A DNA stretch of 64,000 nt. It comes from Sphingobacteriia bacterium (GTDB lineage Bacteria > Bacteroidota > Bacteroidia > Bacteroidales > UBA7960). Where the stretch lies: NCBI GenBank assembly GCA_011390575.1, contig JAABSE010000007.1, positions 2,684 to 66,683 of the forward strand, given 5' to 3'. The notes under the pieces are model-generated. The model had not been told where the DNA came from. It was given only the letters and a program-made list of their open reading frames with translations, and searched no databases. Positions 1 through 18,935 of the stretch are shown here, piece after piece. Position numbers and translations under genes: made by a program. How positions within the stretch are numbered: position 1 is the first letter of the stretch; every line of letters starts with the position of its first letter.

Positions 1-763
1 AATGGTGCCAGTCAAAATCGCGCGCACGGTCGGCAGGAGAGGCATATGGCTCATCAATATCGGGAGGCAACTCAATGTCGCTAAACGCATTGTACTGTGT
101 TGCCCAGACTTTATTGAGTGCATAGATGTCAGCATATTGGTTTTGCAGCCAGGCTGCAAATCGTTGCTTTACCTCTCCACCATAGTCCGCCTGATGAGCA
201 AGCCATGAGAAAAGGCCAATTTCATTACAAATCTGCATCATAATAACCGAACCTTCTTTCCCGACTTCATTCTTGCTGATGAAGGGCATGATTTTGTCGT
301 ACCATTTTGTTACTTTTTCCAGGTAAGTGGGATGGAATAAATTCACTCCTTCGCTGGAAACTCTTTCCCCATTTCGGTTGCGCATCCTGACCTGGTCTTC
401 GTATTGGCTCAGGAACCATTCCGGTAACCCTGCACCACGATACTCTGCCAGGATGTACGGGCCAGGCTTTACAATGGCTTTCAGGCCATGTTCTTTGCAT
501 TTTTGCAGCCATCCGGCAAGGTCGCGCTCAGGCAGGGTGCTGCCATCCAAATCAAAAACCCCCTCTTCAGGTTCATGCCAGTCCCAGGGCACATAGCTGC
601 TTACTGCCATGAGGCCTGCTTCACGGGCTGCGGCCAGGTGAAGGTCCCAATGCTCGCGTTTTATCCTGAAATAGTGAATCTCTCCGGAATTGAGAAAGAC
701 TTCCTTTCCGTCCAGGATGAACTGATTGCCACGGGTTGTGAAGATGGGTTTATTTGCTGTCAT
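1..763 (-). CDS. Glycoside hydrolase family 35-like enzyme (beta-galactosidase family). This is the N-terminal 254 aa; the rest lies beyond the window edge.
   Basis: The ORF track omits it because it runs off the window. Hand translation of the reverse strand from the ATG (complement of 761-763) gives MTANKPIFTTRGNQFILDGKEVFLNSGEIHYFRIKREHWDLHLAAAREAGLMAVSSYVPWDWHEPEEGVFDL...IVKPGPYILAEYRGAGLPEWF...MMQICNEIG. These match GH35 hallmarks as I recall them (GxIHYFR, HEPxxGxF, PGPYIxAE, NE[YI]G acid/base). There is no signal peptide. The start lies 2 nt after the stop of the upstream transporter. Confidence 0.8.
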   Translation of the reverse strand, partial: MTANKPIFTTRGNQFILDGKEVFLNSGEIHYFRIKREHWDLHLAAAREAGLMAVSSYVPWDWHEPEEGVFDLDGSTLPERDLAGWLQKCKEHGLKAIVKPGPYILAEYRGAGLPEWFLSQYEDQVRMRNRNGERVSSEGVNLFHPTYLEKVTKWYDKIMPFISKNEVGKEGSVIMMQICNEIGLFSWLAHQADYGGEVKQRFAAWLQNQYADIYALNKVWATQYNAFSDIELPPDIDEPYASPADRARDFDWHH

Positions 764-765
764 GT

Positions 766-2823
766 TTATTGATCCTTTAGTTCTGATTGTTCTCGTTTTG
801 CGTTTCTTGCTTTCAATAGTTGTTTGATTTCCTGCAGCCGTTCTTCGGTAAGAGAATACCTTGTTACAAAGAACAATGAGAAAAGGCTCAGCAGGATGGG
901 TAATCCGATTTCTACCACCCTCATCATCAGGAGTGTATAAGATGATTGTCGTTTCAGGGGCACAATCCTTTCCTCCAGTTCGAGCATTTCTGTTTCAAGT
1001 GCTTGCAGCGAAACGGAAGTATCGAGAGAAGAAAGATCGCTTCGCATGGAAGCTATTTTTTCAAGCAGCTCCCGGTAGTGTTCTTCACTTTTTTCAGATT
1101 CATGGGCGCGGGTTTTCAAATGGGATTCCAGATGGAAGGCATTCACCTCTGCTTTTATTTGTTTTACCCTGAGAGAAAGAGCTGTGGCTTCTTCTGTAAG
1201 GCTATTTGTTTTTTCCTGTGAGTCAGCAACAAGTATTTCTTCCATGACATTTTCCAGACCATGCACAGTTGTCTGCATATCATGGATGGCTTTGGAGAAA
1301 AACTCTACCCTGTTTCTTTGTTCTTCGCTGTCCGTTTCGATGCGTGCTGCTTCTTTTTCCAGGTAAACCAGGTATTCCCGCCCTTCCTCCAGTGCTGCGG
1401 CGGTTCTTGTTTCAAGAACGGGAAATGCGACAGTCTCTGCATCTGAAGCTACTTCTGCATTTTGAAATACCTGCACTTCATTTCTCATTTCTTTGATGCT
1501 GCCTTCAATGGCATCTACGCGGGTAACCTGGGTTTGATCAAACATGGTGAACACGATCAGGGCTCCGGCCACAAAGCTTGCCAGTGCGGTTCCCATTTTG
1601 ATGAACCACCAGAATATGGAATAGAAGCTACCTTCGGTGCGTTTTCCGGTATTCAGATCGTCTTCATCACAAATGTCGCCTACCATTGAGGCTCCCAGGG
1701 TAAAGAAAAATAGCATACCTGCTGATAGCAGCATGGTGGGAATGATGATCAAATAAGGGTATTGGGGGTTGTAAAAAAATATTTTCGATATCTGTGCCGC
1801 TGCCATGAGTCCAATGGCCAGCATAAGGGTTTTTCTTTTGCCCAGCCTGGGGCTGATCCAGTTGAGCGGAAATACTGCTGCCAGGCCGGTTACGGCCCAT
1901 ACCGTTCCATTGATGCCCAGCAGATAAGCCCCTGCTACTTTGTCTCCTCCAAAAATATAAAAGATGGGTATGTAAGAGCCCAGCAGGTTTACAAAATTGA
2001 ACCCCATAGCCAGAGTGAAGATGGTAAGGGTTAGTTTGATGAAGTTTTTATTGCTGGCAGCATGTTTCATGTTTTTCCAGAAGGGGGTCTTTTCCTGCTT
2101 TACTACCCTCTTGAAGGCGGGTTCCCGAAGAGAGAAAAACCACCAGAAAGACAGAGGGATGATGATGGCAGCTACCAGGAGGGAAACATAGCGCATGCCA
2201 TCCACCTCGGTTCCTCCCGGCCCTTTGAAAAACTCCATGCTGGCCAGGGCAAAGAGCCAGGGGGTGCTCATAGCAAAGAGATTTCCCACAAAACTTTTTG
2301 CACTAAACAAGCGGGTACGCATATGCTGGTCGGAAGTCATTTCCATGCCCAGCGCACCATGCGGAATTTCGAATATGGTACAGGCAGTAAAGAAAAGCAG
2401 CAAAGAAATAAGAATATATCCCAGCTGAAAAGCCTGATAACCGGCTTCTGAAGGGAACCAAACCCTTACCATATCGCCTTTGGGAATCCACCACATCATC
2501 ACAAAAAACACAGCAACCAGAATCCCGCCTACCAACAGAAATGGGCGTCGCCGTCCCCAACGGGTGCGGGCGTTGTCGGATAAATGGCCGATAATCGGGT
2601 CCGATACTGCATCCCACAACCTGGGAATAATAAGAATGACCCCCAGCCAGAATGCACTAAGGCCCAGGCTGATATTTCCCATCAATCCTACCAGGATGCC
2701 CGCCACATTGAATAGCGCAATGGGAATGATACCCCCGGAGCCAAAAGCTGCCAGTTGCGAAAACTTTATCCGATCCTCGGCAAGTGTTTTGTTTTTATAC
2801 TGAGAAGATTGCTGCTCTTCCAT
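766..2823 (-). CDS. Glycoside-pentoside-hexuronide (GPH/MFS) cation symporter with a ~190-aa helical insertion between TM11 and TM12
   Basis: 685-aa ORF with 12 hydrophobic segments. It has a GPH-type TM2 motif (PRLWDAVSDPIIGHLSD) and a canonical last helix plus tail (VEIGLPILLSLFSLFFVTRYSLTEERLQEI). A charged, heptad-like segment (aa ~435-625) interrupts the last loop. Confidence 0.85.
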   Translation of the reverse strand: MEEQQSSQYKNKTLAEDRIKFSQLAAFGSGGIIPIALFNVAGILVGLMGNISLGLSAFWLGVILIIPRLWDAVSDPIIGHLSDNARTRWGRRRPFLLVGGILVAVFFVMMWWIPKGDMVRVWFPSEAGYQAFQLGYILISLLLFFTACTIFEIPHGALGMEMTSDQHMRTRLFSAKSFVGNLFAMSTPWLFALASMEFFKGPGGTEVDGMRYVSLLVAAIIIPLSFWWFFSLREPAFKRVVKQEKTPFWKNMKHAASNKNFIKLTLTIFTLAMGFNFVNLLGSYIPIFYIFGGDKVAGAYLLGINGTVWAVTGLAAVFPLNWISPRLGKRKTLMLAIGLMAAAQISKIFFYNPQYPYLIIIPTMLLSAGMLFFFTLGASMVGDICDEDDLNTGKRTEGSFYSIFWWFIKMGTALASFVAGALIVFTMFDQTQVTRVDAIEGSIKEMRNEVQVFQNAEVASDAETVAFPVLETRTAAALEEGREYLVYLEKEAARIETDSEEQRNRVEFFSKAIHDMQTTVHGLENVMEEILVADSQEKTNSLTEEATALSLRVKQIKAEVNAFHLESHLKTRAHESEKSEEHYRELLEKIASMRSDLSSLDTSVSLQALETEMLELEERIVPLKRQSSYTLLMMRVVEIGLPILLSLFSLFFVTRYSLTEERLQEIKQLLKARNAKREQSELKDQ

Positions 2824-2892: not shown

Positions 2893-4278
2893 CTATTCCA
2901 TATATTCAAAACCCAGTTTGTCCAGACCTTTTTGTATGATTGGGTCTTGCATTACATATTCCCAGATGAGCCCGCTGCGAAAATTTTCAATCGATATCAG
3001 CATCGGACCCTGTGCCACGCCGATATAATCGTCATTTACCCATCCGGCAGTTTCATTAAAAGCATCATAAAAACCATAAGGTCCCCAGATGCTGTCTCCT
3101 TTATTTTCTAACATATACCGGGCGGTAGGAAAAACTATTTCGGGAGCGAAAGGAAGCGATGACAATGCTCCATAAGGGGCAATGGTACCATCATCGAAGT
3201 AGTTGTAATCGGGTCCGGCTGCTCCTCTTCCTGCATACCCCAGGAACTCATGGCCATCAAAATTGTACTCTTCTCCGGGGCCATCGCAAGCTGTAATACC
3301 CCAGCAAAATTCACCATATCCTTTCCAACCATAGGGGTTTTCAATGGCATACTGTTGTTGGGTAAGGGTAGCACGACGCGAGTTTTCAAAGTAATCTATC
3401 CCTTTCTCTTTCATGTAAGGATCAGCCAGTCCTCGGAAGTCGATAAAGGCATGAGAGAACTGATGCCCGAAAAGAGGAGGGAAGGCCGCGTGAGAGAGAC
3501 CCGGATAAGGTGTATTCCAGGTATAGGTAGACAGCCAGGCCTCATAGCTTTCCTCAACGTTTTCCATTCCGGTACCTGCAGCCAGAATGTAAAGAAAAAG
3601 GCCTTCGTTGTACCCGAACCAGCCCCAGTTGATAAGACCGTCTTCAGGCTTCCAGCCCATGGAGATGGTTTTGGGATGGTTGGTTTCCGGACCCATATCA
3701 AAAATGCTCCAGTCAAGCCGGGTCAGAAGAACTTCTGCCATTTCACGTATCTCGCGTTCCGTTTCATTCTCTCTGTCATAATAATTTCTGGCGAAAATTA
3801 CTCCCATCAGCAGCAGTCCTGTATCGATGGATGATAATTCGCAATCCCATGTTCGTTTTCCGGTTTCCATGTCCAGAAAATGATAATAAAACCCTTTATA
3901 TCCTGTTGCATTTGGTGCATCGCTTTGTTCGGAGTTGATCAGAAAATCAAGTGCATTGAAGGTTAATCCTGCAGCTTCTTCACGGAGCATCCAGTTTCGT
4001 TTCACTGCTACAGCAAGCGAGGGAAGGGCAAAGCCAGTGGATGCAATGCTGGAAGGGGCGTCCTCCCGGGCACGATCCATAAACAAACCTTTTTCGGGGT
4101 TTACTTTGTCCCGGAAAAACAGAAATGTTTGATACTGAATGGAGTCAAGTAAAGCATTATCTTCGGTTGTAACGGGATAATCAACTTTTCCGTGGGAAAT
4201 GAATTCATTGGTTTGCTGTGGTTCACTGCAAGCACCCAAGAACAGAACAGCCAGGATTAAAACACCTTTAAGTTTCAT
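2893..4278 (-). CDS. GH144-like / PF10091 'putative glucoamylase' family (alpha/alpha)6 lipoprotein, copy B
   Basis: 461 aa with a lipoprotein signal (LAVLFLGAC). It is a divergent paralogue of 8869-10245, sharing blocks such as QTFLFF/QTLKYF, ASTGFAL/GGTGFGI and GFYYHFLD/GAWSHWID. The family call is from memory of motif blocks, not an HMM. Confidence 0.55.
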   Translation of the reverse strand: MKLKGVLILAVLFLGACSEPQQTNEFISHGKVDYPVTTEDNALLDSIQYQTFLFFRDKVNPEKGLFMDRAREDAPSSIASTGFALPSLAVAVKRNWMLREEAAGLTFNALDFLINSEQSDAPNATGYKGFYYHFLDMETGKRTWDCELSSIDTGLLLMGVIFARNYYDRENETEREIREMAEVLLTRLDWSIFDMGPETNHPKTISMGWKPEDGLINWGWFGYNEGLFLYILAAGTGMENVEESYEAWLSTYTWNTPYPGLSHAAFPPLFGHQFSHAFIDFRGLADPYMKEKGIDYFENSRRATLTQQQYAIENPYGWKGYGEFCWGITACDGPGEEYNFDGHEFLGYAGRGAAGPDYNYFDDGTIAPYGALSSLPFAPEIVFPTARYMLENKGDSIWGPYGFYDAFNETAGWVNDDYIGVAQGPMLISIENFRSGLIWEYVMQDPIIQKGLDKLGFEYME

Positions 4279-4412: not shown

Positions 4413-5249
4413 TTATTCAGGCTTCTCACCATCATAAATCGTTTGCACTTGTTCTTCAGTCAGGGCTACATTGAAAATTCTCAGGTCATCCAGGTCACCT
4501 TCGTAGTTGCCGAGCCATTCATGTACTGTGTTGGGGTTCATTCCGATATAAAAAGCACCGGCACTTTCTGGTACAGTTACAGGCCCCATGGGGGTTTCTC
4601 CGGCAACAAGGGTATCCCTTGATAATTGGGTTCCATCCATGTAAATATCTCTTATGCTGGTTGCCCCGTCATAAGCATATACAAAGTGAAACCACTTGGA
4701 GGGTGGGAAAAATACATCGCGCAATACACCTGCGTCGGTATCTGTCCATCCGTAAATGTCAGAACTCTGATGGCGTGTAAAAGCTTTATAGCGCAAAGTA
4801 TCGCCTCTGGCACTTCCTTCCTGCCATATACCGTAACCGGCATTCCAGTCGATGTCCGGATCAATAAAGGAAAGGATAAAATTGGTGCCGCCCGGCATCT
4901 GCTGTGCACGCAGCCACATACTGAAAGTCATGCTGCCCATGCGGAAATTGTCAGTATCATCGATTCTGACAAATGCTGTTTCAGAACCTTTGTATGCAGC
5001 GTTGGCTTCGAAATGGCGATCAAGGGTGTAGGTAACTCCATCACTTGCTGTTTCATGACCCTGTTCGTCGGTAACATCTCCATCAAATTTGAAATAGGCC
5101 ACGAGGTTGTTAATCGCTACGGTGTCAGCAGGGTTGATGTCGTCACCATTTCCGTTGTCGTCATCGGGGTCATCATCGTCTTTTGAACAGGCTGCCAAAG
5201 AAACCATTGCAGCAACAAAAATCCACGTTAAAAATTTCAAGGTTTTCAT
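4413..5249 (-). CDS. LamG/concanavalin-A-like (Laminin_G_3) lipoprotein, a candidate surface glycan-binding protein
   Basis: 278 aa. The lipoprotein signal SLAAC is followed by an acidic stretch (SKDDDDPDDDNGNGDD). The C-terminal signature is GDLDDLRIFNVALTEEQV, and FSMWLRA is typical of Laminin_G_3 domains. Confidence 0.7.
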   Translation of the reverse strand: MKTLKFLTWIFVAAMVSLAACSKDDDDPDDDNGNGDDINPADTVAINNLVAYFKFDGDVTDEQGHETASDGVTYTLDRHFEANAAYKGSETAFVRIDDTDNFRMGSMTFSMWLRAQQMPGGTNFILSFIDPDIDWNAGYGIWQEGSARGDTLRYKAFTRHQSSDIYGWTDTDAGVLRDVFFPPSKWFHFVYAYDGATSIRDIYMDGTQLSRDTLVAGETPMGPVTVPESAGAFYIGMNPNTVHEWLGNYEGDLDDLRIFNVALTEEQVQTIYDGEKPE

Positions 5250-5350: not shown

Positions 5351-8300
5351 TTATTGCACCAGAAGTTTTTTTACCAGGATGCCATCTTTACTTTGCACCC
5401 TTACCAGGTAAACCCCACTCTTCAATCCGGAAATATCCAAAAGGGTTTGTTCTTGTTTGCTTTCTTGATTTATGAGTAATTTGCCTTTGAGGTTAATAAT
5501 GGAAATAACTGCTTTAGCCGGAGTAGAAATGGAAACAGTTTGGGATGCGGGATTGGGGAATATCGTAAAATTACCGGTTGGTTCCCATTGGGGAACGGAG
5601 ACTTCTCCGGCACTGAATCCTACCATGTCTACCTGAATTATGGCCTGCTCGGGAGTGGTGTTACCGGTTTCCATCAGCACGTCGACCCTCTGGATATGAC
5701 TCATATCGGGAAGGTTTTCCGCCCAGTCCATCACTGTAAATTCATTGAGGGGAATTTCTACTTTCTGCCAGTCAGTGCCTGCATTGAAATATGTATAGGC
5801 TGCCCCATCACTACCCTGAATCCCATCCGTATCAAAAACCTGCAGGAGGATATCCTCAACCGGTTCACTGGCTCTTACGTATAAGACAATATGATCGAAC
5901 CCGCTGATGTCGGCCATAGGAAAAGCCCACAACCAATAGCCTGTCAGATCATCGGTAAGTGACAGATCGTAATCCAGTTCCAGCACTACTCCCCCAAATT
6001 CGCCTTCCCCGGTTACATCAATAGCGGTGATGCTTCCCTGAGCCCATTCCGGCACCTCTCTGAATCCCTCCACGTTGGTTAGGCCGGGAATGGTAAAGTC
6101 ACTGTAAATAAAATAGTCTGAAGGGTCTGATCCCGAGCCCGTTAGAGGGATGTGAATATCCTGTACAGAGAGAACTGCATTTCTGTCTCCTGGTTGAATG
6201 GGCGAAAAAGAAACGGTAAATGTTGCCGTTTGAAAAGTGCCCAACTCTGTTGTCTCTTCTAAATTCTGAAGGTCAAAATCAGAAGAATGCTCTCCGGAAA
6301 GACTGATATCTGCAGGAGAAACAGTTAATGTTCCTCCTCCTGTATTTCTGATGGTAAACTGAATAGGTTCGGAGGTGTTTCCAATGGTCTCCTGTCCGAA
6401 ATCTCCGGTGGCAGGTGTAACTTCTATAATCGGTGTATCACCGGGTTCGGAAAGAAGAATATCATCGATGTCCCACTGGGTAATGTTATCGGTAATTCCG
6501 TCAAAAATCCAGGCCAGTTTGAAGCTTTCACTGCCAACTCCATGACTCTGGCTGTCTATAAGGCTGACAAATTCAGTCGCTGAAATGCTTTCAGGGTTTT
6601 CCCATTGATGAATGATGTATTCTGTTTCATCCGCGATGGCTACCACTTTGAGCGTATATTGTCCCGGACCACCAAAATTGTTTACCCTGTGTTTAAAAGA
6701 AAGTACAAGTGTGTCCAGGTCAGTCGTTTCAATTTCCGGGGATGTCAGGTAGAATTGCCCGGTACTTTCGGGTTGCCACCAGAACACCATTTCCGGAGCT
6801 TCACCGCCGGCATTGGCAGTGTTGAAGGCACCCCAGTTTACAGAACTGCGTGTCCAGCCCAGAGGAATTCCTCCTCCTTCCATTGCGCTGAATTCTTCCA
6901 GCCAGGGCAAAGAAGTAATGGTGGGATCAAAACCTAACCCTTCGATGGGAATTTCAATGTCCAGAATCGTGAGGCTTGCAGTTTTTAATCCTTCTGTTTG
7001 CGGATGAAAGACGAGGCTGATTTCCGCTGTTTCCAGGTATTCCAGTTCTGCATTTTCCTGCAGGCCGGTAAGTGTAAAGGCTGCAGCATCTTCCCCTGAA
7101 AGAACAATGTCTTCGGGTGAAATCACAAGCGTGCCCCCTCCTACATTGGAGAGTGTAAATGTTTGAGCTTCGGATTCAGTATTGACAACCTGTGGCTCGA
7201 AAGTGAAAGCCTCCGGATTAACATCCAGTGCAGGTTCGGCTGAAAGAGCAATATCATCAATGGCCCACCGGGTGAGGTTGTCACTTACACCGTCAAATAT
7301 CCAGACAAACTGTACTATCCCTTCTCCGATGCCATGCTCTGCGCTGTTGATTTGTAAGGTGATTTCTTCTGCCGGAATACTGGCCGGATCAAACCACTGC
7401 TGGATGATAAATTCTTCTTCTCCTGCCATAACTGCTAAAGTGAGATCATAAATGCCGGGGTCTCCGAAGTTATCCACTACATGTTTGAATGACAGGTTCA
7501 TGCTGTCAAGTCCGGCTGTGTTGATTTGCGGAGTTTTGATCCATAGCTGACCTTCCTGAACCGGTTGCCACCAGAATACCATTTCCGGTGCTTCGCCACC
7601 TGCATAAAAGGAATTAAAGGCGCCCCAGTTTTCAGCGTTGCGCTCCCAGCCAAAGGGCATTGTTCCGTTGTCAAGTTCGTCAAATTCCTCTGACCACGGG
7701 AATGTGTAAATGGTAGCATCGTAACCTTCTCCGGTCAATGGTACCTGCTCACCATCAATCTGGAGCAAGGCATCATGCATACCGGTAACAAAAGGGGCAA
7801 AGACAAGACTTATCTCAGTGCTTTCACCGGCTTGTAAATCAATGGGTTCGGTTATATTTTCAAGAAGGAAAGCATCAGCATCGGTCAGAATATTAAAATT
7901 GGCCAATACTCCAAAATGGTCTGAACCATAAATGCCGCTGTCATTGGGCTCATCCAGCACTACTTCTGCCGATGTTGGTACAAAGGTTGCCTGCATGGCT
8001 TTGTTAAAGAAAACATAGTCGATTCTTCTCTGCTGGTGACCCAGATGGTAGTTCAGTGTGCCATGTTCAGGGTCAAGATGGTTTTCGTGGAAAAGAGGGT
8101 AGACGTCCTGAAAATCTTCATTCATAAGCTCCATTTCTTCCCAGTCGGGGTTGGCATTGAAGTCTCCGGTAACCAGTTTATAATCATTGGAGGATGTTTC
8201 TTCAATAAAATCCAGCATATCGAGAATCTGCTCTTCACGAATGTGTGTGTTAGCAGCTGTGTTGTGCAAATGGGTGTTGTAAACATCAATGGTATTGCCC

Positions 8301-10285: not shown

Positions 10286-11734
10286 TTAATATCCGGGATT
10301 TTGGGTCAATACTCCGTCGCTGAGGTCAATCTGTGTCTGAGGGATGGGAAATACTTCATTTTTTCCTGTTTGAAACCCCAGACTGCCCAACTCCTGTGAA
10401 GCCCTTCCCGTTCTGATCAAATCGAAGAAACGGTGCTTTTCCATGGCCAGTTCAGCGCGTCTTTCATCCCAGACATCTTCCAGCGTGGGGCTGTTGATAG
10501 GATCTAGTCCGGCTCTTTGCCTTACGAGGTTGAGGGGTGTAGCCGCATCTCCTCCTGCATTAAGGGCTGCTTCCGCATTCATCAGCAAAACTTCTGCATA
10601 ACGAATGTAACGTATGTTGTGGTCGAGAGCATAATCGATGGTATTATAGCGTAATTCTGTATAAACCTTGTAGTTGTAATAAGGATTGGGGCAGTTGGCG
10701 TTGATGGAATCGCCTTCAGGAGTTCTGAATCCCCGGGGTAATACAGTGGCAAATTTGCGGATTTCATCGTCGCGGCTGTCAAAAAAATCAATGAGCTTCT
10801 CCGAAGGTACATTGAAACCCCAACCTTGCATACGGGCAAAATTGTTGCGGGGGCCTTGCACGAATCCATATTCGCATCGGTATCTTCCCTGATCGCGTGA
10901 GGTAAGCTGTAGTTCGAAAACTGACTCGGAGGAGTTTTGTCCAATAACACGGAACAGGCTGTAAAAATCGGGATACAAAGAATAGGTGTTGGAAAGGATG
11001 ATTTCGTCGGTCTGGAATTTTACCTCAGCCCATCTGTCCTGATACATGTATGCTCTGGCAAGTAATGCCCGGGCGGCGCCACGGGTAGCCCGGCCTGCTT
11101 CCTCCAGGGGATAATTTGCAGGAAGCTGCTCTATGGCGTACAACAGATCTGTTTCTATAAAGTCATACACTTCTTCTCTGGTAGAACGGGGAATTTTGGC
11201 AAACTCTTCAGCGGTGAGGGTGGTATCAACTATGGGCACCCCGCCAAAAGCCAGATTGAGCCTGAGATAAAGAAAAGCCCTGAGAAACCTGGCTTCTGCC
11301 ACCAGGGGATCCCTTACTGCTTCATCGTCAAAATTAAGATCGAGTAAAGTATTGATGGCAAAATTTGCATTGCCGATTACACTGTAATGGTCATTCCAAA
11401 AACTCAGAAACAAATCATTTTCGGGTCCGTAAGTAAAGGCATTTAATTCGATCATGGCTGGTGAATCATCAGGAGTACTGCCTTTATCGGCATCGTCGCT
11501 GGTTATTTCAAACATGCCTATGTAGGGAAAAACACTGACACCCCAGCTTCTCATGCCGCCGTATACAGCACTTACATAACGGAATCCTTCTTCAGCTGTG
11601 GGCTCTCTTTCATAATCGATGGGTAGTTCTCCCTCAGGAGAAACGTCCAGAAAATCATCGCAAGCACTGAAGCTGAAAGCAACAGTGAAAATGATAATGA
11701 AAACGGATGCTATTTTGAATTGTATTTTTTGCAT
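10286..11734 (-). CDS. susD: SusD/RagB-family outer-membrane glycan-binding lipoprotein
   Basis: 482 aa with lipoprotein signal FSFSAC-DD, directly downstream of SusC. It has the SusD-like C-terminal block ERRAELAMEKHRFFDLIRTGRA. Confidence 0.9.
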   Translation of the reverse strand: MQKIQFKIASVFIIIFTVAFSFSACDDFLDVSPEGELPIDYEREPTAEEGFRYVSAVYGGMRSWGVSVFPYIGMFEITSDDADKGSTPDDSPAMIELNAFTYGPENDLFLSFWNDHYSVIGNANFAINTLLDLNFDDEAVRDPLVAEARFLRAFLYLRLNLAFGGVPIVDTTLTAEEFAKIPRSTREEVYDFIETDLLYAIEQLPANYPLEEAGRATRGAARALLARAYMYQDRWAEVKFQTDEIILSNTYSLYPDFYSLFRVIGQNSSESVFELQLTSRDQGRYRCEYGFVQGPRNNFARMQGWGFNVPSEKLIDFFDSRDDEIRKFATVLPRGFRTPEGDSINANCPNPYYNYKVYTELRYNTIDYALDHNIRYIRYAEVLLMNAEAALNAGGDAATPLNLVRQRAGLDPINSPTLEDVWDERRAELAMEKHRFFDLIRTGRASQELGSLGFQTGKNEVFPIPQTQIDLSDGVLTQNPGY

Positions 11735-11800: not shown

Positions 11801-14800
11801 TTAAAATGTCACATTGATTCCGGCAGTAAAGGTTGCGCTGAGCGGATAGGTGTCGTTGTCAATCCCTGTAGCGATTGGTGAACCTCCAATTTCGGGTGTG
11901 TATCCGTTGTATGCGAAAAGGGTAAGAGGGTTTTGTGCCGAAACATACACCCTGAGGCTTTGCATGCGAAGAGTTTGTCTTATATTCTCAGGCAGGGTAT
12001 ATCCAATCTGAATATTCCTTATCCTGACATAACTTCCTGACTCCACAAAAAAGGAATTGGGGAAAATGTTCCGTCGTGTAAGAGCCGCTGAAGGGTAGGT
12101 GTTTGATGTACCGCTTCCCTGCCAGTAGTTGTCGTAAAAATCTTTGTCATAGTTGGCATCGGGAAAAATATTACGGATAGTGCGTTTGGCATTATAAATT
12201 TTGTTGCCATAAACCCCCTGGATTACTACAGAAGCATCCCATTGCCTGTAATTAAAGTTGGCTGTAAAACCATAAGTGAAAGTGGGAATAGGACTGCCCA
12301 GCATCATACGGTCTTCGTCGTCAATGCGGTCATCTCCGTTCACATTTTCAAAAATAAAGTCACCGGGCAGAGCATCGGGTTGTAATATGACACCATTGTC
12401 GCTGGTATATTCATTTATTTCGGTGAGGCTTTGAAATACACCTATTACGTTGTAACCGAAAAAAGCTCCTACAGGCTGTCCGACAGTCGCACGGGTAAGA
12501 AACTGTCCGTTGGACAAGGCTCCGAAAAGTACACCGGATTCATTTCTTATTTCCAGCACTTCATTATCAACGGTGGAGATGTTTCCACTGAAAGAGTATT
12601 TGAATTCGCTTGAAGTGTTGCTGTTATTCCAGCCCATGGAAAGGTCAATGCCCCGGTTTCTGATTTTTCCGTTGTTGCCCAGCAATTCCACTGTGCCTGA
12701 TACTCCCGGGATAGTGAGCGTAAAAACAGCATTGTCAGTAATACGGTTGTAAAAGTCAAGTTCAATACTCAGCCTGTTAGAAAAGGTGAATATTTCCAAA
12801 CCTGCATTGAACTCTTCTATGGTTTCCCATATCAGGAAGTTGTTGTAAACGGTCTGGAAAGTAAGTCCCGGCACAGGGTTGTTGCTTCCAAAAATTCCGG
12901 TAGTTCCGGGTCCGGGGCTTCCTGTAATCTGAACTGAATTGGCGGGAACATTGTTATTGCCCAGTTGTCCCCAGCTACCTCTCAGTTTCAGGTAATCGAA
13001 AGTATTCTGATTGCTCATAAAATCTTCCTGGCTGATAACCCATCCCAGACCCAGAGAAGGAAAGTACCCCCAGGGGTCATTGTATCTGGAAGAACCGTCT
13101 GCCCTTATGGTGGCCGTGGCCATGTATTTTGAGTCGTAATTGTAGCTTACCCTGGAAAAAAAGGAAGCTACTCTGCTTTTAAATCCTCCATCATTTCCAT
13201 CCCTGCTAGTGTCGTCACCCAATCGAATGTAGGGTTTTTCATCAGGAAGTTGCGGAACATTGAATCCGGTAGCAGTGAGATAGTTGGAAAAAAACTCCTG
13301 TAAAGAGGATCCTGCCATAATTTTCAGGCTGTGCCTGGTAAAGAGCCTGCTGTATTCAAGGGTGTTGTCAAACTGCAGGTTTCTGCTGAAATCGTTGTTT
13401 TTGTTCAGCGAACTGGTGGTATTGGCCTGTAAGCCTGAAACGTAGTAGGTTGGGTTGAAGTTTTCGCGCTGGCCAAATGATAAGTTGGCACTCAGGCTGC
13501 TTCTGAAATTGAAATATTCCCCGAAATCGGCCGAAAGGTAGGTGCTGGGGATGAGTTTGTATTCTTCATTTACAACATCGTGGTAATAGGCGCTTGCCAT
13601 AGGGTTGGCAAATGGACCGGAAAAGCCCAGTGCTGTGGGGTCGGTCCACTCTCCGTTATCCTGGCGTGCTTCAAAAGCCGGAGGGGCAACATAACCCTGA
13701 AACAGGGCGTAATTGTAAGCAGGGGTGCTGTTGTTTTTAGAAAAAATCAGGTTATAGCCGATATCTAAATTATTAAAATAGTAATCGTTCTTTGCCCGGA
13801 AGTTGAGCCTGTTGAAATTATTGTTATTATCGGGGTTGTGTGAGTCCAGGATGCCATCCTGGTAAAGATAACCTAGCCCGTAGCTGTAGGAAGAGTTGTC
13901 GGTGCCTCCTGAGATGCTTACTTCGTGACTGGTTATCAAGGCAGCCCGGGTAAGTTCTTCGTACCAGTTGGTACTCAGAGTGTGCATTGAGGGGTCAATC
14001 ATGTTGCCCACACCTGTCAAGCCTGTACGCTGATTCAATAGTTCAATATATTGGTCAGTATTGGCCATTTCCATTATATTGGTGGCCTGTTGAAATCCGG
14101 TATAAGATGAAAAGTTTACCTGTGTATCTCCTTTTTTTCCTTCTTTGGTTGTAACCAGAATAACTCCGTTGGCGGCCTGCACTCCGTAAATTGCCCCGGC
14201 TGAAGCATCCTTCAAAATGGTGTAGGACTCTATGTCGTTGTTGTTGAGGAAATTGATGTTTTCAACAATTACTCCATCCACCACCCACAAAGGGCCGCCG
14301 CCATCGCCAAATACTGTGCTTATTCCCCTTATTCTGATTAGGGGCTGGCTGCCCGGCTCGCCGGAATTGGTTACCTGCAGCCCTGCTACTTTACCTTGCA
14401 GTGCCTGGGCAGGGTTGGAGGTAATCTGGCGCGAAATCTCTTCTGAGCGTATCGTGGTTATGGGGGCTGTTAAGTCTTGTCTCGTTCCGGTTCCGTAACC
14501 TATAAAAACAACTTCCTGCAGATTGGTAATATCTGCGCCCAGGGCAACGTTGATAATGTTTCGGCCATCAACCGGTTCTTCATGGCTGGCCATCCCGATA
14601 AATGAGAAGATCAATACAGCGTCCTCATTCGCTGTTAGTTCATAGCGCCCGTCCATATTGGTTTGGGTCCCCTGGGTGGTGTTTTTGATCTTAACGGTAA
14701 CCCCGGGCAGGGTAGACCCGTCAGCAGCATCTGTAACAACACCGCTGATTTGGATCTGCCCATATCCCGTGAAAACAACACCTATGAAAAGTAAGTAAGC

Positions 14801-14821
14801 AATGAGTAGTTTTTTCTTCAT
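11801..14821 (-). CDS. susC: SusC/RagA-family TonB-dependent outer-membrane transporter
   Basis: 1006 aa. The signal peptide ends GYG|QIQ. It has an N-terminal carboxypeptidase-regulatory-like domain (ISGVVTDAADGSTLPGVTVKIKN...MDGRYEL), a plug region, and a long barrel ending in an aromatic residue (...AGINVTF). Confidence 0.95.
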   Translation of the reverse strand: MKKKLLIAYLLFIGVVFTGYGQIQISGVVTDAADGSTLPGVTVKIKNTTQGTQTNMDGRYELTANEDAVLIFSFIGMASHEEPVDGRNIINVALGADITNLQEVVFIGYGTGTRQDLTAPITTIRSEEISRQITSNPAQALQGKVAGLQVTNSGEPGSQPLIRIRGISTVFGDGGGPLWVVDGVIVENINFLNNNDIESYTILKDASAGAIYGVQAANGVILVTTKEGKKGDTQVNFSSYTGFQQATNIMEMANTDQYIELLNQRTGLTGVGNMIDPSMHTLSTNWYEELTRAALITSHEVSISGGTDNSSYSYGLGYLYQDGILDSHNPDNNNNFNRLNFRAKNDYYFNNLDIGYNLIFSKNNSTPAYNYALFQGYVAPPAFEARQDNGEWTDPTALGFSGPFANPMASAYYHDVVNEEYKLIPSTYLSADFGEYFNFRSSLSANLSFGQRENFNPTYYVSGLQANTTSSLNKNNDFSRNLQFDNTLEYSRLFTRHSLKIMAGSSLQEFFSNYLTATGFNVPQLPDEKPYIRLGDDTSRDGNDGGFKSRVASFFSRVSYNYDSKYMATATIRADGSSRYNDPWGYFPSLGLGWVISQEDFMSNQNTFDYLKLRGSWGQLGNNNVPANSVQITGSPGPGTTGIFGSNNPVPGLTFQTVYNNFLIWETIEEFNAGLEIFTFSNRLSIELDFYNRITDNAVFTLTIPGVSGTVELLGNNGKIRNRGIDLSMGWNNSNTSSEFKYSFSGNISTVDNEVLEIRNESGVLFGALSNGQFLTRATVGQPVGAFFGYNVIGVFQSLTEINEYTSDNGVILQPDALPGDFIFENVNGDDRIDDEDRMMLGSPIPTFTYGFTANFNYRQWDASVVIQGVYGNKIYNAKRTIRNIFPDANYDKDFYDNYWQGSGTSNTYPSAALTRRNIFPNSFFVESGSYVRIRNIQIGYTLPENIRQTLRMQSLRVYVSAQNPLTLFAYNGYTPEIGGSPIATGIDNDTYPLSATFTAGINVTF

Positions 14822-15193
14822 AGCAAAGTGTTTTGAATTTTATGATATAAGGGTTGATGTTTTGAAGTATGATAAAAATTCCTGACGCTGAGGAATATGC
14901 ATCATAAATGTACTGTTTCCGACATGGGCAAGTCAACTTTTTGACCGTAAATCAGTTTCACATAATTCCGAAAACGTTTGCGGACACCTTAACTTTACCC
15001 TAACAGAGTAGATTAAAGTATTGAAAAGCAAGGCGATAAGAAAATTAAACCGTACTTTTTTTATCGAAGTTTTTTAAGGATGGAGAGGTCAGGGAAATGG
15101 GAAAAACGTAGATAAGGCATAGAACTCCGCAGACAAAACATTTTTGTTAGTAAGGAAGGATAAGGTGTTGGTTGAAAGCTTTGCTCAAATTGT

Positions 15194-17995
15194 TTAATCC
15201 GTATGATTAAACTCTTCTTTCATGAGAAATTCTACGAGGTTTTCTTCCTGCGATAAGTTCAGTTTTTTTCTTAACCGGTGTCTGCTGACTTCCACGCCGC
15301 GTGCAGAAATATTTAACAGCTGGGCAATTTCCTTGGTGTTGAAATTCATGCGCAGATAGGAGCAAAGTCTCAGGTCGTTGGGAGTGAGACTGGGATAACT
15401 TTCCTTCAATACCTTAAAAAATCCTTGCTGAGATAATTTCAGATTGTTCATGGCATTTTCCCATTCCACACTTTGTGTTCCCAAACCCTGCTCAATAACT
15501 TTTTCCATGTTTTTGATGTGCTTTACGGGATATTTTGCGGATTGTTCTTTGAGGGTGGTAATCTGCTTTTTCAAATCATTGAGAATGTTGTCTTTGAGCA
15601 ACAGGTGCCGCATGGTAAGCATAAGTTCATAGCTTTTATAATCAAGCTCTTTTTCCAGGCTGTTTTGTTTTACTTCCATGGCCACCAGTTCTCTCTGCCG
15701 GCTGATTTCAAAACGGAAAAATTTGAAAAGTCCCCAGATAAGCGCCAACAGGGCAATTACATAAATAACAATCGCAGTGTTGGAGATAAAAAAGGGTTTG
15801 GCAATGGTGAAGTTAGTTTTTATAACTTCCTGGGCATCACTCATAATTTCAAGCGTGTATTTTCCATGTTTCAGATCCAGATAGGTAAACTGATTAAGGG
15901 TTGTTATCTGCCACGCCAGATCAAGTTCCCGGATACGGAAATACCAGGTTCTGGGAAACTGGCTAAAATTGGATGGGTCTGCAAAAAATACGGTAAGATT
16001 ATTGGAATATGAGGGAATCTTGCCTTCGGGAAATGATTTGAACCAGGATAGTGTGTCCCGTTTTCCGTAGAATATCAGATTTTCGAATTGCAACCGGCTG
16101 ATTTCATTTCGCTGCTCTGCTATAGCGACATTAAAAGCATTGAAATTCTGAGGGCTTGGAATCAAAAGGGTGTTTTTTTCCAGGGAGACCAGCTGGATTT
16201 TCCGTTGAGGGAGGTTGATGTTTTCCTGGGGTATTTCCATGATTTTTGTAGCTGAAAAGTCCAGGTTGATTTCGAACAGAGCAATTTTATCGTTTCTGAA
16301 AAACCAGTATAGATTTCTGTGAAAGTGGCTTATTTGTGCAGCAAGTGCAAAGTCTTCAAGGTCATGGGTAAGGGTTTCAAAAGGGATGATCTGATTTCTG
16401 ACAAAATCCCAGGTATAAAGATTTTCTCCGGTAGTAAAAACCACTCTGTTGTTGATTTTGAATACTTTGATGTTGTGGGTAATTTTTTCTATTTCGGAGA
16501 AATGTTCTATGTCGGCCACCGAATCAAGGTCTTCGGTTAGCTCGATTTTGTAAACCCCTTTCTGATGGTGTGAGGCCCATACATAGCCCAGGTAATCTGT
16601 TTCAAGATACCTGATGGGTTCCTGAAATCCTTCGATTTTGTTTCGAAATTGCCATTGGTCCTTTTGACCCTTTTCAAGAACTACGATGCCGGTATAGGTA
16701 CCCCCGATTACGTATTCTCCCAATGGAGTGAAAGCCCAGCCCCCGGTTACAGATGAAACCAATTCCAGGTGATTGTCCCGGACAATAAAAGTTCCTTCAT
16801 TGTGGCCGCAGATGATTTGACCGTCAATTTCTTCCAGGGTCCATACCTGGCCCTGGCTTCCGGAGATAAAATCGAGATTGTAGAAGCTGAAAATGTGACC
16901 CTTTTTCTGAATTTCCGTTTTGAAAAGTCCGTGATTGGTGCCAATGTATAAAATGTTGTCTTTCTCAAGCAGCGCATAAATGGTGCCCAGTGTACCTCCC
17001 AGGCTTTTGTAAAATGTAAAGGGTGAGAGCAGGTCAATATAACTGGCTCCTTCGTCAAGCCCGGTCCACAAACCCATGTCGGCATCCAGCAGCATGGATA
17101 AAACGGTATTGTTGTTGAGTCCGTTATTGGTATTATACCGGCGTTGAATGTTTCCACTGTTATCGGTGATAATGACCCCGTTAAGTATCGACCCAAAAGC
17201 ATATGTGCTGTCGCTGAGCTGTTTTGCTGTATTACAATTGTAGTTTTCCAGGAATTCAGAAGCTTCAGACCGGAAATAGCTGAACCGGTTCCCGTCGTAA
17301 AGATATAAACCTGCATTATCGGTTCCGATTAACCATTGGTTTGCTCCGTAAGGTATAATGGCGTGCACTTTCTCTCCGGCAAATAATTCGCTGTTTTCAA
17401 TGAAGTCGAATTCTCCGTTTTCAAACCAGAACAATCCGGTATCAATAATCTGAACGATAAACCGATCCGTAACCTGATGCATAAAAAGCATGGTATAGGG
17501 AGCCTTTACCTGCTCAATCTGTTCATTGTTGTAAATGTATATCGATGTAAAGGATTGGAAATAAATCTTTCCTTCACGGGTGAAAATTTTCCAGATTTCA
17601 TCGTTTTTATCCGGTTTTTTCAAATAAGAAAGAGATCTGTAGGCGAGTTCTCCGGTTGTTGAACGCTCCCAGTATCCAAACTCTTCAAAAGAACCCGTAT
17701 AGATTCTTCCATTCTCATGGGCCAACACCGATCTCACCGGAAGATTTTCCTGTAAAGTGTAGGTTTTTCTGCTGATGCCATTGAATTCAATCAATCCTTC
17801 AGAGTTGGCAAAATAAATAAAATGGGTTTCAGGGCTTTGGGAGATGGCCCAGTTTTGATTGCGCAGGTCCAGGGTTTGATTGAGGTAGGCATGAATTTCC
17901 GGGAGCTCCATTTTAAGCGCCTTCACAGAGAAAGAGACAAAAAGCCCCAAAAGAAGTAGTGACAAGCTTGCTATGGAAAACTTATGCCTGGTCAT
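15194..17995 (-). CDS. Membrane-bound one-component regulator: a periplasmic beta-propeller/Y_Y_Y sensor (HTCS-like), one TM helix and a C-terminal LuxR-type HTH, with no kinase or receiver domain
   Basis: 933 aa. It has an N-terminal signal/anchor and repeated propeller-like blocks (NAGLYLYDGNRF, GLWTGLDEGASYI, LYIGTNHGLFK). A Y_Y_Y-like segment is present (WYFRIRELDLAW...KHGKYTLEI), followed by a TM helix (AIVIYVIALLALIWGLF). The C-terminal HTH reads LTPNDLRLCSYLRMNFNTKEIAQLLNISARGVEVSRHRLRKKL. Confidence 0.75.
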   Translation of the reverse strand: MTRHKFSIASLSLLLLGLFVSFSVKALKMELPEIHAYLNQTLDLRNQNWAISQSPETHFIYFANSEGLIEFNGISRKTYTLQENLPVRSVLAHENGRIYTGSFEEFGYWERSTTGELAYRSLSYLKKPDKNDEIWKIFTREGKIYFQSFTSIYIYNNEQIEQVKAPYTMLFMHQVTDRFIVQIIDTGLFWFENGEFDFIENSELFAGEKVHAIIPYGANQWLIGTDNAGLYLYDGNRFSYFRSEASEFLENYNCNTAKQLSDSTYAFGSILNGVIITDNSGNIQRRYNTNNGLNNNTVLSMLLDADMGLWTGLDEGASYIDLLSPFTFYKSLGGTLGTIYALLEKDNILYIGTNHGLFKTEIQKKGHIFSFYNLDFISGSQGQVWTLEEIDGQIICGHNEGTFIVRDNHLELVSSVTGGWAFTPLGEYVIGGTYTGIVVLEKGQKDQWQFRNKIEGFQEPIRYLETDYLGYVWASHHQKGVYKIELTEDLDSVADIEHFSEIEKITHNIKVFKINNRVVFTTGENLYTWDFVRNQIIPFETLTHDLEDFALAAQISHFHRNLYWFFRNDKIALFEINLDFSATKIMEIPQENINLPQRKIQLVSLEKNTLLIPSPQNFNAFNVAIAEQRNEISRLQFENLIFYGKRDTLSWFKSFPEGKIPSYSNNLTVFFADPSNFSQFPRTWYFRIRELDLAWQITTLNQFTYLDLKHGKYTLEIMSDAQEVIKTNFTIAKPFFISNTAIVIYVIALLALIWGLFKFFRFEISRQRELVAMEVKQNSLEKELDYKSYELMLTMRHLLLKDNILNDLKKQITTLKEQSAKYPVKHIKNMEKVIEQGLGTQSVEWENAMNNLKLSQQGFFKVLKESYPSLTPNDLRLCSYLRMNFNTKEIAQLLNISARGVEVSRHRLRKKLNLSQEENLVEFLMKEEFNHTD

Positions 17996-18071
17996 AATCG
18001 TAGTTCAGTGGTGTTTGTATTAGCATGGTTGCAGCGACCGTATTTCAGGTGGCTGCTGGCTAAGATATGTA

Positions 18072-18935
18072 TTATTTCAATTGTAAAACAGCTTTTATGG
18101 GCCAGTGGTCCGAAATAAAAAAACCATCATCCTTAACCTGGTCCACGCTGAAGTTTTTTACCTCAAATTGGTTGTCTGTAAAAATAAAATCGATAACCCT
18201 GGGATCGGTGTCATCTCTGAATGCATTAAAGGTATTGTCAGCATTAACGACCGGCTGTTGAGAATAATATTCCACATTCCGTAACCCGTTGTTTTGTTCC
18301 AGGTGGTCAATCATGTAATCGTAAAGTGGCGACCCTTTGGTTATGTTAAAGTCACCGGTAACAATTACCGGAAACTCTCCTGCAATCTTTTGGATTTGAT
18401 CCGACATGAACTCCATGCTTTTCTCCCGGGCAAGATCGCTGACGTGGCTGAAGTGAGTGTTGAAAACAACCATTTCTCTTTCGCTTTCACGATGCTTCAG
18501 TTTAGCCCAGCTCACTACCCTGGGTAATATTGCTTCCCAGCCAATACTTCCGGGAATATCAGGAGTTTCTGATAGCCAGAATTGTCCGTGTTCCATCAAT
18601 GTAAATGTTTGGGTGCGGTAAAAAACCGGGGAAAACTCTCCGCTTCTTAGCCCGTCATCACGACCGGTGCCAACGTAGGCATATCCGCTCATGATTTGCA
18701 AAAGGTCTTCATTCTGATGGTGAAGGCTTTCCTGAACGCCCAGAATATCGGGCATTTCTTCGGCCATATATGTTTCCATTAAGGGTATACGATGCTCCCA
18801 CGCGTTGATACCATCGGCAGGATTATCGAATCTGACATTAAGACTCATGACCTTGATTTCGTGACCAGGTGGTTCGGAAGAGCAAAAATTGAATAATAAA
18901 AGAAAAAGTGGTGCCAGAAGAAAGAGTACTTTCAT
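18072..18935 (-). CDS. Endonuclease/exonuclease/phosphatase (EEP) family metal-dependent hydrolase, exported
   Basis: 287 aa with a signal peptide/lipobox-like LLFNFC. EEP motifs are present (MSLNVRF, LGVQE, NTHFSH, GDFN, SDHWP). Confidence 0.75.
   Translation of the reverse strand: MKVLFLLAPLFLLLFNFCSSEPPGHEIKVMSLNVRFDNPADGINAWEHRIPLMETYMAEEMPDILGVQESLHHQNEDLLQIMSGYAYVGTGRDDGLRSGEFSPVFYRTQTFTLMEHGQFWLSETPDIPGSIGWEAILPRVVSWAKLKHRESEREMVVFNTHFSHVSDLAREKSMEFMSDQIQKIAGEFPVIVTGDFNITKGSPLYDYMIDHLEQNNGLRNVEYYSQQPVVNADNTFNAFRDDTDPRVIDFIFTDNQFEVKNFSVDQVKDDGFFISDHWPIKAVLQLK

Follow-up and report, generated by a model that had tools for sequence, protein, structure and literature searches.

A predicted beta-1,2-glucan utilization locus carrying two EEP-superfamily phosphoesterases in a Sphingobacteriia bacterium

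A glycan utilization locus with two phosphoesterases

The first 18,935 nucleotides of a 64,000-nucleotide stretch of contig JAABSE010000007.1 from a Sphingobacteriia bacterium (assembly GCA_011390575.1; the whole stretch is called the window below) hold a row of genes organized as a polysaccharide utilization locus (PUL). Two of these genes encode proteins of the EEP (endonuclease/exonuclease/phosphatase) superfamily, one of 287 and one of 1167 amino acids. The target of the locus is very probably beta-1,2-glucan. On balance, we favor the view that this is a PUL for bacterial beta-1,2-glucans that has been extended with two phosphoesterases, which would remove phosphate-linked decorations. What is new about it is a family of secreted, putative EEP phosphodiesterases, nested in an Ig-like domain and tied to beta-1,2-glucanases by synteny and gene fusion.

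All ten genes of the row have family assignments that hold up in comparisons with profile hidden Markov models (HMMs) or solved structures. An initial annotation, made from the sequence alone, had proposed the same families, and our HMM check recovered the EEP, SusC, SusD, PF10091, PF13385, GPH and PF01301 matches as well as the C-terminal domain for export by the type IX secretion system (T9SS). The SusC-like transporter reaches 800.7 bits against TIGR04056 (cut-off 368) and carries the TIGR04057 signature together with Plug and CarbopepD_reg_2 domains. The SusD-like protein matches PF07980 with 103 bits and PF14322 with 88 bits, and its lipobox (FSAC) is followed by DD. These two genes are adjacent, with a gap of 66 nt, and GH144 and GH35 genes lie downstream on the same strand. 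This arrangement identifies the locus as a PUL, as had been proposed.

Enzymes for the beta-1,2-glucan backbone

Both lipoproteins that the initial annotation had called GH144-like are indeed members of that family. GH144 lipoprotein A (GH144-A) and GH144 lipoprotein B (GH144-B) match PF10091 with E values of 8e-78 and 3.5e-71, corresponding to 261 and 240 bits (cut-off 27). Among solved structures, GH144-A matches 4gl3 (1e-158) and the “endo-beta-1,2-glucanase” CpSGL (5gzh/5gzk, 4e-144), and GH144-B is closest to XCC2207/XcSGL (8xul, 2e-106), an enzyme that hydrolyzes beta-1,2-glucan and was crystallized with sophoro-heptaose (PMC12102758). Three residues define the SGL clan (PMC12102758); in XcSGL numbering they are E239, the Glu that acts as general acid, F286 (Phe) and Y367 (Tyr). 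In GH144-B, the motifs GYNEG, PPLF and LGY align to Q225 (the E239Q mutant), F272 and Y353 of 8xul. The corresponding motifs of GH144-A, aligned to those of GH144-B, are WNES, GPLF and VGY (VGYQ), so that all three clan residues are kept. We predict from these alignments that GH144-A is an endo-beta-1,2-glucanase and that GH144-B is an XcSGL-like beta-1,2-glucanase. A run of acidic residues comes after the lipobox Cys of GH144-A (CGDDVEVPDD) and may serve as a cue for surface export. The idea that the PF10091 proteins of the window fall into one of the newly defined sister groups of the SGL clan, outside GH144, was rejected, since their best solved-structure matches are GH144 members with E values of 1e-106 to 1e-158.

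The lipoprotein encoded between the large EEP and GH144-B matches the LamG family PF13385 with 55 bits, and its lipobox (AAC) precedes the stretch SKDDDDPDDD. Homologues lie between two GH144 genes in GH144 PULs that carry no EEP (L090-L092 and L103), and at other positions in L115, L141 and L155.

The last two genes of the row point to import into and processing in the cytoplasm. The symporter matches PF13347 with 209 bits and TIGR00792 with 154 bits, the latter below that model's own cut-off. Its orthologues in six other loci (L001, L006, L007, L026, L137 and L161) are 78-92% identical and always adjoin a GH35 gene, and the protein is a predicted inner-membrane importer of beta-1,2-gluco-oligosaccharides. 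Its transporter core of ∼440 amino acids is followed by a coiled-coil-like stretch of ∼190 amino acids with a weak SMC match and then by a terminal hydrophobic helix; this C-terminal extension is kept in the orthologues that adjoin GH35 genes (684 amino acids in L001).

The GH35 fragment scores 147 bits against PF01301 and has no signal peptide. Its best solved structures are those of the “beta-1,2-glucosyltransferase” IaSGT (7vkw/7vkx/7vkz, 2e-62), followed by glucosaminidases (GlmA, 1e-40) and by galactosidases (4e-26 or weaker). The motifs ILAEY and CNEIG are kept in the alignment with IaSGT and correspond to Leu100/Glu102 and to the acid/base NE motif, whose roles have been described for that enzyme (PMC8861115). 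A galactan or glucosamine role was rejected because IaSGT is much the closest relative. The initial annotation had also considered that a cytoplasmic GH35 enzyme does not fit a pure glucan; this objection falls away, because the protein is closest to a beta-1,2-glucosyltransferase from a GH144 gene cluster. Full-length orthologues of 810 amino acids, with a PF22369 domain, are present in L001 and L006, whereas the window copy ends at codon 254, before the Glu343 equivalent and the C-terminal domains. The Ignavibacterium album cluster that contains the IaSGT gene also has two GH144 genes and one GH94 gene (PMC8861115).

The gene order in relatives extends the row beyond the window. L006 and L007, whose EEP domains are 80-81% identical to that of the large EEP, reproduce the full order of the window and continue with GH94. 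The order in L001, where the big EEP is 57% identical, is GH144, big EEP, GH144, symporter (MFS_2), GH35, a GH94 SOGP (a 1,2-beta-oligoglucan phosphorylase) and GH3. GH35 is followed by the GH94 SOGP gene in L001, L006, L007 and L026, and GH3 is seen after GH94 in L001. By analogy with these relatives, GH94 and GH3 genes are predicted to lie to the left of the window.

The small and large EEP proteins

The small EEP matches PF03372 with 45 bits (cut-off 24.5). It is probably a lipoprotein, with Cys18 at its signal peptide. Its matches among solved structures are 3g6s (4e-51), 3mpr (3e-43) and the “mannosyl-6-phosphatase” 4c1r (5e-43), the last two of which are both BT3783. The EEP catalytic motifs can be read in the sequence as LNVRF, GVQES, TGDFN and SDHWP. 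Together with its homology to BT3783, the position of the gene as the first of a PUL places the protein in the BT3783 type. Work on the use of yeast mannan by Bacteroides tested both BT3783 and BT2630 for phosphatase activity with phosphorylated sugars, and superimposed the former on the DNA-end phosphodiesterase TDP2 (PMC4978465). We therefore predict by homology that the small EEP is a BT3783-like sugar-phosphate monoesterase. The initial annotation knew of no PUL architecture in which a phosphoesterase-fold protein is the largest, secreted component with binding modules. Phosphoesterase-fold enzymes as such do have precedent in PULs: BT3783 is a phosphatase of a Bacteroides yeast-mannan PUL, and BT2630 is another such case. 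Homologues of the small EEP with 58-68% identity are encoded upstream of the regulator in six loci (L006, L007, L026, L027, L032 and L088). Independent occurrences of BT3783-like EEPs are found between GH144 and GH3 in two otherwise canonical PULs, L116 and L097.

The large EEP has a more elaborate architecture. It matches PF03372 with 89 bits (cut-off 24.5) and the choice-of-anchor D model NF012200 with 109 bits. A hydrophobic N-terminus and a T9SS type A C-terminal domain (PF18962, 53 bits; TIGR04183, 51.5 bits) are consistent with export. From the N-terminus, the protein consists of a signal (residues 1-23), a first Ig-like domain (Ig1) in two parts (24-70 and 325-382) in which the EEP domain (∼71-324) is nested, module M1 (383-545), Ig2 (546-642), module M2 (643-806), Ig3 (807-906), a CBM11/CIA30-like module (907-1092) and the T9SS domain (1098-1167). 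The nesting is clear from the sequence: the EEP domain occupies a loop within Ig1, a choice-of-anchor-D Ig domain (residues 24-382), and once residues 71-324 are excised, Ig1 is complete and its alignment to Ig2 and Ig3 is gapless, scoring 189 compared with 30.5 ± 5.7 for shuffled sequences.

An AlphaFold 2 model of the large EEP has a mean confidence (pLDDT) of 87. Its EEP domain superimposes on TDP2 with a TM score of 0.80-0.83, a root-mean-square deviation of ∼3 Å and 21-23% sequence identity, and thus the EEP fold proposed initially is supported by the structural comparison. Residues N83, E114, D231, N233, D312 and H313 show no variation among 49 homologues. The PF03372 match, the TDP2-like fold and this metal-binding and catalytic set of Asn, Glu, Asp, Asn and Asp-His residues together identify the domain as a member of the EEP superfamily.

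The initial description of this protein as decorated with binding modules is borne out only at the level of fold. The M modules, which are repeats of ∼160 amino acids, adopt a jelly roll of the MAM/CBM4/6/16/22/cleaved-adhesin kind, a generic likeness with TM scores of ∼0.6, but when isolated they have no Pfam or NCBIfam match even at E = 10. The C-terminal module scores 19.3 bits against the carbohydrate-binding module (CBM) family CBM11, below the 27-bit cut-off, and its likeness to CIA30 is also subthreshold. Hence, none of the modules belongs to a defined CBM family as judged by Pfam and NCBIfam. A Foldseek search with the full-length model is dominated by Ig-repeat proteins (hydin, reelin), and beyond TDP2 it is uninformative with regard to substrate.

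Linkage of multidomain EEPs to GH144 and GH3 in other organisms

A protein search with the large EEP yielded ∼96 multidomain homologues, and an exhaustive profile search yielded 214 clusters at E ≤ 1e-30. Among these proteins, the EEP domain (41-49% identical) is fused directly to an XcSGL-like GH144 domain in seven cases (P0101, P0102, P0104-P0107 and P0109). In two others, P0108 and P0130, the latter recovered in the profile search, it is fused to GH3.

We also scanned species-representative genomes with a profile of the EEP domain and obtained 79 loci, 28 of which contain the multidomain form. A GH144 gene lies within 10 kb, in the fetched flank, in 17 of these 28 loci, and in 13 of the 17 whose length is at least 15 kb; a rough estimate of the chance expectation is ∼1%. 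BT3783-like small EEPs accompany 13 of the 28 big-EEP loci. GH144-linked multidomain EEPs occur in soda-lake metagenome-assembled genomes (MAGs) labeled “Bacteroidales” or Sphingobacteriia, in Rhodohalobacter, in Cyclonatronaceae and in Phaeodactylibacter. The locus of the cultured Phaeodactylibacter xiamenensis KD52 (L025) comprises a Y_Y_Y kinase, a LytTR regulator, a small EEP, a big EEP, a sulfatase, two GH144 enzymes and GH3. In four Rhodothermales/Salinibacteraceae loci (L045, L047, L062 and L064), an EEP-GH144 fusion adjoins another GH144 gene and GH3. The synteny check proposed initially has thus recovered the gene set in other organisms, together with EEP-GH144 and EEP-GH3 fusions. 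A distance tree places the GH144-linked EEPs in three clades, and GH144 is present in all six loci of the fusion clade. An explanation of the association as an effect of a single lineage was rejected on the basis of these three clades and the several named taxa. Because synteny is conserved and the EEP domain is fused directly to GH144 and GH3, a functional tie between the EEPs and the PUL is supported.

Members of the EEP subfamily also occur in other settings. Stand-alone EEP lipoproteins of ∼300 amino acids in Luteimonas, Pseudoxanthomonas and a deltaproteobacterial MAG (L044, 9899-10828; L065, 9893-10792; L060, 9896-10750) have no glycan genes within 10 kb. It is conceivable that these proteins turn over their hosts' own glucan decorations, as the hosts may make periplasmic or cyclic glucans. 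In five proteins of ∼680 amino acids (P0098-P0100, P0103 and P0125), the EEP-subfamily domain is C-terminal. The N-terminal part of P0098, a protein in which Pfam reports the EEP domain alone, contains the motif HTHSLWSDGD and resembles PHP phosphoesterases, by eye only. Among more distant members, fusions to amidase, PIG-L or FIMAH domains occur. In the metagenome relative L004 (9292-9642 and 14522-18351), a GH3 remnant of 116 amino acids precedes the big EEP, which is followed by the reverse transcriptase of a group II intron and by an integrase; this suggests that the beta-1,2-glucan locus has been broken up there by mobile elements.

EEPs are uncommon additions to a widespread PUL type

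To place the locus among GH144 PULs in general, we scanned metagenome contigs with GH144-A and obtained 80 loci whose GH144 proteins are 55-85% identical to it. The common pattern among them is (regulator)-SusC-SusD-GH144-GH144-GH3, and therefore the core of the locus is an already known and widespread type of predicted beta-1,2-glucan PUL. Of these loci, 49 are 10 kb or longer; SusC and SusD are present in 43 of them, GH3 in 33 and an EEP of any kind in four. The EEPs are lineage-specific additions to the GH144 PUL core in a minority of lineages, and the initial picture of a locus built around them does not hold.

Genes of the sulfatase family also recur in GH144 PULs. They are of the formylglycine type (CAPSR/CSPSR; PF00884 and SGSH_C), and none is present in the window. 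They lie between GH144 and GH3 in L110 (12493-13899), L121/L124 (14607-15947), L127 (11536-13017) and L160 (3271-4593), and after GH3 in L130 (11945-13288) and L156 (14727-16190). Beside EEPs, they are found in L021-L023, L025 (13482-15098), L045 (15769-17058), L062 (3143-4462), L064 (5828-7126) and L003 (2060-3481). The slot between GH144 and GH3 thus holds a sulfatase-family gene in some PULs and a BT3783-like EEP in L116 and L097. This recurrence hints at a general need for the removal of anionic esters in GH144 PULs. We know of no sulfated beta-1,2-glucan, and it may be that these members of the sulfatase superfamily act as phosphodiesterases or that they are a sign of an unknown decoration.

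Regulator and the region upstream of susC

The predicted parts of the regulator are, in order, a signal peptide, a periplasmic propeller-like sensor, a Y_Y_Y-like region, a transmembrane helix and a cytoplasmic GerE/LuxR helix-turn-helix domain. Of the propeller/Y_Y_Y-LuxR composition given in the initial annotation, the LuxR part is secure, as GerE scores 28.7 bits and exceeds its cut-off, but the propeller (Reg_prop, 19.8 bits; cut-off 20.4) and Y_Y_Y (14.3 bits; cut-off 26.6) matches remain subthreshold. A domain search detected no HisKA, HATPase or receiver domain that would indicate a kinase or phosphorelay. BguR of F. agariphila, a protein of 940 amino acids, is reported to be consistently associated with GH144 PULs (bioRxiv 10.64898/2026.01.10.698779). 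The regulator of the window, with 933 amino acids, is close to BguR in length and may share its architecture, the propeller and Y_Y_Y matches being those below threshold, and homologues with 54-64% identity are present in related GH144 loci. The 372-nt region upstream of susC presumably holds the promoter and the target of the regulator. Scans of the sequence for sigma-70 consensus promoters and for terminators performed no better than the same scans of shuffled sequences.

A pathway for phospho-substituted glucans

What has been observed are the families of the proteins, the order of their genes, conserved catalytic residues, synteny and fused domains, and the pathway outlined below is built on these. 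Capture of the glucan, which might be a cyclic glucan or an osmoregulated periplasmic glucan (OPG) of Proteobacteria, would take place on the cell surface through SusD and the LamG lipoprotein, a candidate glycan-binding protein. The large EEP, exported by the T9SS and positioned on the polymer by its jelly-roll modules, would cleave phosphodiester substituents of the phosphoglycerol or phosphoethanolamine type at glucose O-6. GH144-A would cut the backbone, and SusC would import the resulting oligosaccharides. In the periplasm, GH144-B would shorten these oligosaccharides and the BT3783-like small EEP would strip residual phosphomonoesters. Sophoro-oligosaccharides of the by then neutral backbone would enter the cytoplasm through the GPH symporter and be processed there by the IaSGT-like GH35 enzyme, the GH94 phosphorylase and GH3, the last two predicted to be encoded just outside the window. 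The putative BguR-type regulator would sense periplasmic oligosaccharide and activate the susC operon. The role of the small EEP would parallel the mannan system, where the phosphate that BT3783 removes is exposed by a glycosidase. The predicted parts of this pathway are the substrates of both EEPs, the P-O bond that is cut, the division of labor between the two enzymes, all localizations and co-regulation.

To our knowledge, phosphoglycerol and phosphoethanolamine are the sole anionic phospho-substituents described for beta-1,2-glucans. Phospho-substituents of this kind are present on the cyclic glucans of Rhizobiaceae. Many Proteobacteria, pathogens and symbionts among them, make beta-1,2-glucans in the form of OPGs or cyclic glucans, and these are frequently decorated with phosphoglycerol, phosphoethanolamine or succinyl groups. 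The substituents of Escherichia coli OPGs are phosphoglycerol, phosphoethanolamine and succinyl groups (PMC10514313). Within the literature that could be searched, we found no enzyme that removes phospho-substituents of beta-1,2-glucans and no EEP in beta-1,2-glucan loci. For the substrate, we infer a beta-1,2-glucan with phospho-substituents as the most economical choice, and removal of its phosphodiester substituents as the best and most economical reading of the locus; the interpretation given in the initial annotation is partly supported. More tentatively, the 1167-aa protein and its relatives fused to GH144 or GH3 might constitute a new class of glycan-specific phosphodiesterases that strip phosphoglycerol or phosphoethanolamine from beta-1,2-glucans in tandem with a BT3783-like glucose-6-phosphate monoesterase.

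Several observations weigh against the removal of phosphate-linked decorations as the role of the EEPs, and some of these lend themselves to other explanations. Among the 17 long multidomain-EEP loci, four (L015, L020, L023 and L024) have no GH144 gene within 10 kb. The nearest structure to the large EEP is that of TDP2, a DNA-end phosphodiesterase, NCBIfam gives only weak xth/EEP matches, and the EEP fold itself is silent on substrate. The enzyme could then be a nuclease, or an enzyme of the sphingomyelinase/phospholipase-C type, that frees periplasmic glucan by attacking cell debris, DNA outside cells or the membranes of Gram-negative prey. Such a role would suit a protein that is exported by the T9SS and has Ig-like and adhesin-like modules of the sort often seen in hydrolases secreted by Bacteroidota, and it would suit the periplasmic location of beta-1,2-glucans in many producers, where lysis would aid access. 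We consider this unlikely, as the same EEP domain is fused to GH144 and GH3 catalytic domains, so that both would act on one molecule, and lies inside GH144 operons in several lineages; a glycan-phosphate pathway is also a better fit for loci that encode a further sugar-phosphatase homologue, of the BT3783-like kind. The possibility that the EEP genes are passengers, engaged in phosphate scavenging, encoding unrelated enzymes or encoding catalytically irrelevant binding proteins, would be in keeping with the lack of EEPs in 45 of the 49 GH144 loci of at least 10 kb and with the unrelated contexts of the wider subfamily, which includes stand-alone EEPs of ∼40% identity in Luteimonas, Pseudoxanthomonas, Eisenbacteria and others with no glycan genes nearby. 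A passenger role is very unlikely, however, because it is contradicted by gene order conserved across lineages with gaps of only 14-101 nt, by the fusions with GH144 and GH3 and by the invariance of the catalytic residues.

Other difficulties concern the polymer. Carbohydrate binding by the accessory modules of the large EEP is suggested at the level of fold only. The CxPxR enzymes that co-occur in GH144 loci are formally sulfatases, such that the anionic group could be sulfate in some of them. In addition, enterobacteria repress their synthesis of OPGs when osmolarity is high, which is awkward given the hypersaline and soda-lake habitats of the relatives. One might suppose that the target is an undescribed anionic polymer containing beta-1,2-glucose, for instance a phosphoglycan joined by phosphodiester bonds in its backbone or a sulfated or phosphorylated glucan, and that the large EEP is its backbone depolymerase. 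The size of this enzyme, the largest and most module-rich of the locus, is typical of a primary depolymerase, and the recurrent sulfatase genes and the saline habitats of the carriers, where the supply of OPGs is uncertain, point in the same direction. Such a target nonetheless seems improbable to us. Both GH144 proteins keep the clan residues of beta-1,2-glucanases, and the cytoplasmic module, with an IaSGT-like GH35 and a GH94 SOGP, is specific for sophoro-oligosaccharides. We know of no polymer of the supposed kind, which also counts against this explanation. Moreover, the polymer would have to offer the ∼5 contiguous beta-1,2-glucose units, at subsites -3 to +2, that beta-1,2-glucanases need (PMC12102758).

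If phosphate-linked decorations are indeed removed, then the EEPs and the sulfatase-family genes in the same slot would indicate that the anionic periplasmic and cyclic glucans of Proteobacteria serve as food for environmental Bacteroidota and Rhodothermota, which would need dedicated ester-removal modules for this purpose. A secreted EEP phosphodiesterase and a BT3783-like phosphatase are candidate enzymes for a step, so far not described, by which decorated glucans of bacteria would be turned over. They would extend the non-CAZyme accessory activities of PULs beyond sulfatases, esterases and mannan phosphatases. As a cultured carrier, P. xiamenensis KD52 makes the question of decorated-glucan recycling directly testable.

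Layout and surroundings of the locus

An open reading frame (ORF) check recovered the ten co-oriented minus-strand genes at or near the coordinates given in the initial annotation (Table 1). Gaps between genes are 2-134 nt throughout the row, apart from the one upstream of susC. The ATG of the GH35 gene, at position 763, lies 2 nt past the symporter stop, as had been noted, and the gene runs off the window; the left border is thus the edge of the window and not the end of the locus. On the right, the border is real: a divergent DUF418 gene (19185-20423) is followed by unrelated Lrp and PLP-enzyme genes.

Table 1. Genes and intergenic region of the locus, in window coordinates.
Feature	Position	Strand	Length	Family or remark
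Small EEP phosphoesterase	18072..18935	-	287 aa	PF03372
Putative BguR-type one-component regulator	15194..17995	-	933 aa	GerE
Intergenic region upstream of susC	14822..15193	-	372 nt	sole long gap in the row
SusC-like TonB-dependent transporter	11801..14821	-	1006 aa	TIGR04056
SusD-like lipoprotein	10286..11734	-	482 aa	PF07980 + PF14322
GH144 lipoprotein A, predicted surface endo-beta-1,2-glucanase	8869..10245	-	458 aa	PF10091
Large T9SS-exported EEP phosphoesterase	5351..8854	-	1167 aa	PF03372 + PF18962
LamG/concanavalin-like lipoprotein, candidate surface glycan-binding protein	4413..5249	-	278 aa	PF13385
GH144 lipoprotein B, XcSGL-like, possibly periplasmic	2893..4278	-	461 aa	PF10091
GPH-family (MFS_2) cation symporter	766..2823	-	685 aa	PF13347
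GH35 IaSGT-type, 5' part, cut by window edge	1..763	-	254 codons	PF01301

The proteins of the locus are all strongly acidic: Asp and Glu make up 10-17% of their residues, and 13-17% in the exported enzymes and lipoproteins. Their closest relatives are from soda-lake and hypersaline MAGs. An Rfam scan returned only one tRNA, distant from the locus. Just outside the locus, a gene for a WYL/WCX-domain regulator (22479-23660) adjoins one for a 556-aa protein with a T9SS C-terminal domain and a weak DUF5711 match (23789-25459). Further along the window, GC skew spikes to 0.258 at 32000-34000, compared with at most 0.13 in all other 2-kb windows; this interval covers an ORF with a TTG start (32143-33921).

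Comparison with known systems

TDP2, a Mg-dependent EEP phosphodiesterase, shares with the large EEP its fold and the catalytic Asn/Glu/Asp/Asn/Asp-His set. Unlike TDP2, the large EEP is bacterial, exported, nested in an Ig domain and encoded in a glycan locus, and it is unlikely to act on DNA. In the yeast-mannan PULs of Bacteroides thetaiotaomicron, a PUL-encoded, TDP2-like EEP takes phosphate off a phosphorylated glycan, and this enzyme and the small EEP are homologous (5e-43 to 4c1r). Those PULs act on alpha-mannan, whereas beta-1,2-glucan is the predicted target here, and they have no counterpart of the secreted multidomain EEP of 1167 amino acids.

Like the SGL cluster of I. album (IALB_1177-1187), the locus combines two GH144 genes with a cytoplasmic IaSGT-type GH35 and, by prediction, a homologue of the GH94 SOGP. 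That cluster has an ABC transporter and no SusC/SusD pair, unlike the window locus, and the paper that describes it mentions no EEP there, its text containing neither “phosphatase” nor “endonuclease” (PMC8861115). The canonical GH144 PULs, which include the Chitinophaga pinensis and B. thetaiotaomicron clusters and the marine PULs of the BguR type, share with our locus a regulator, SusC, SusD and two GH144 enzymes, with GH3 present in relatives. In comparison with these, the locus adds two EEPs and a cytoplasmic cassette of GPH symporter, GH35 and predicted GH94 that is joined to the PUL core.

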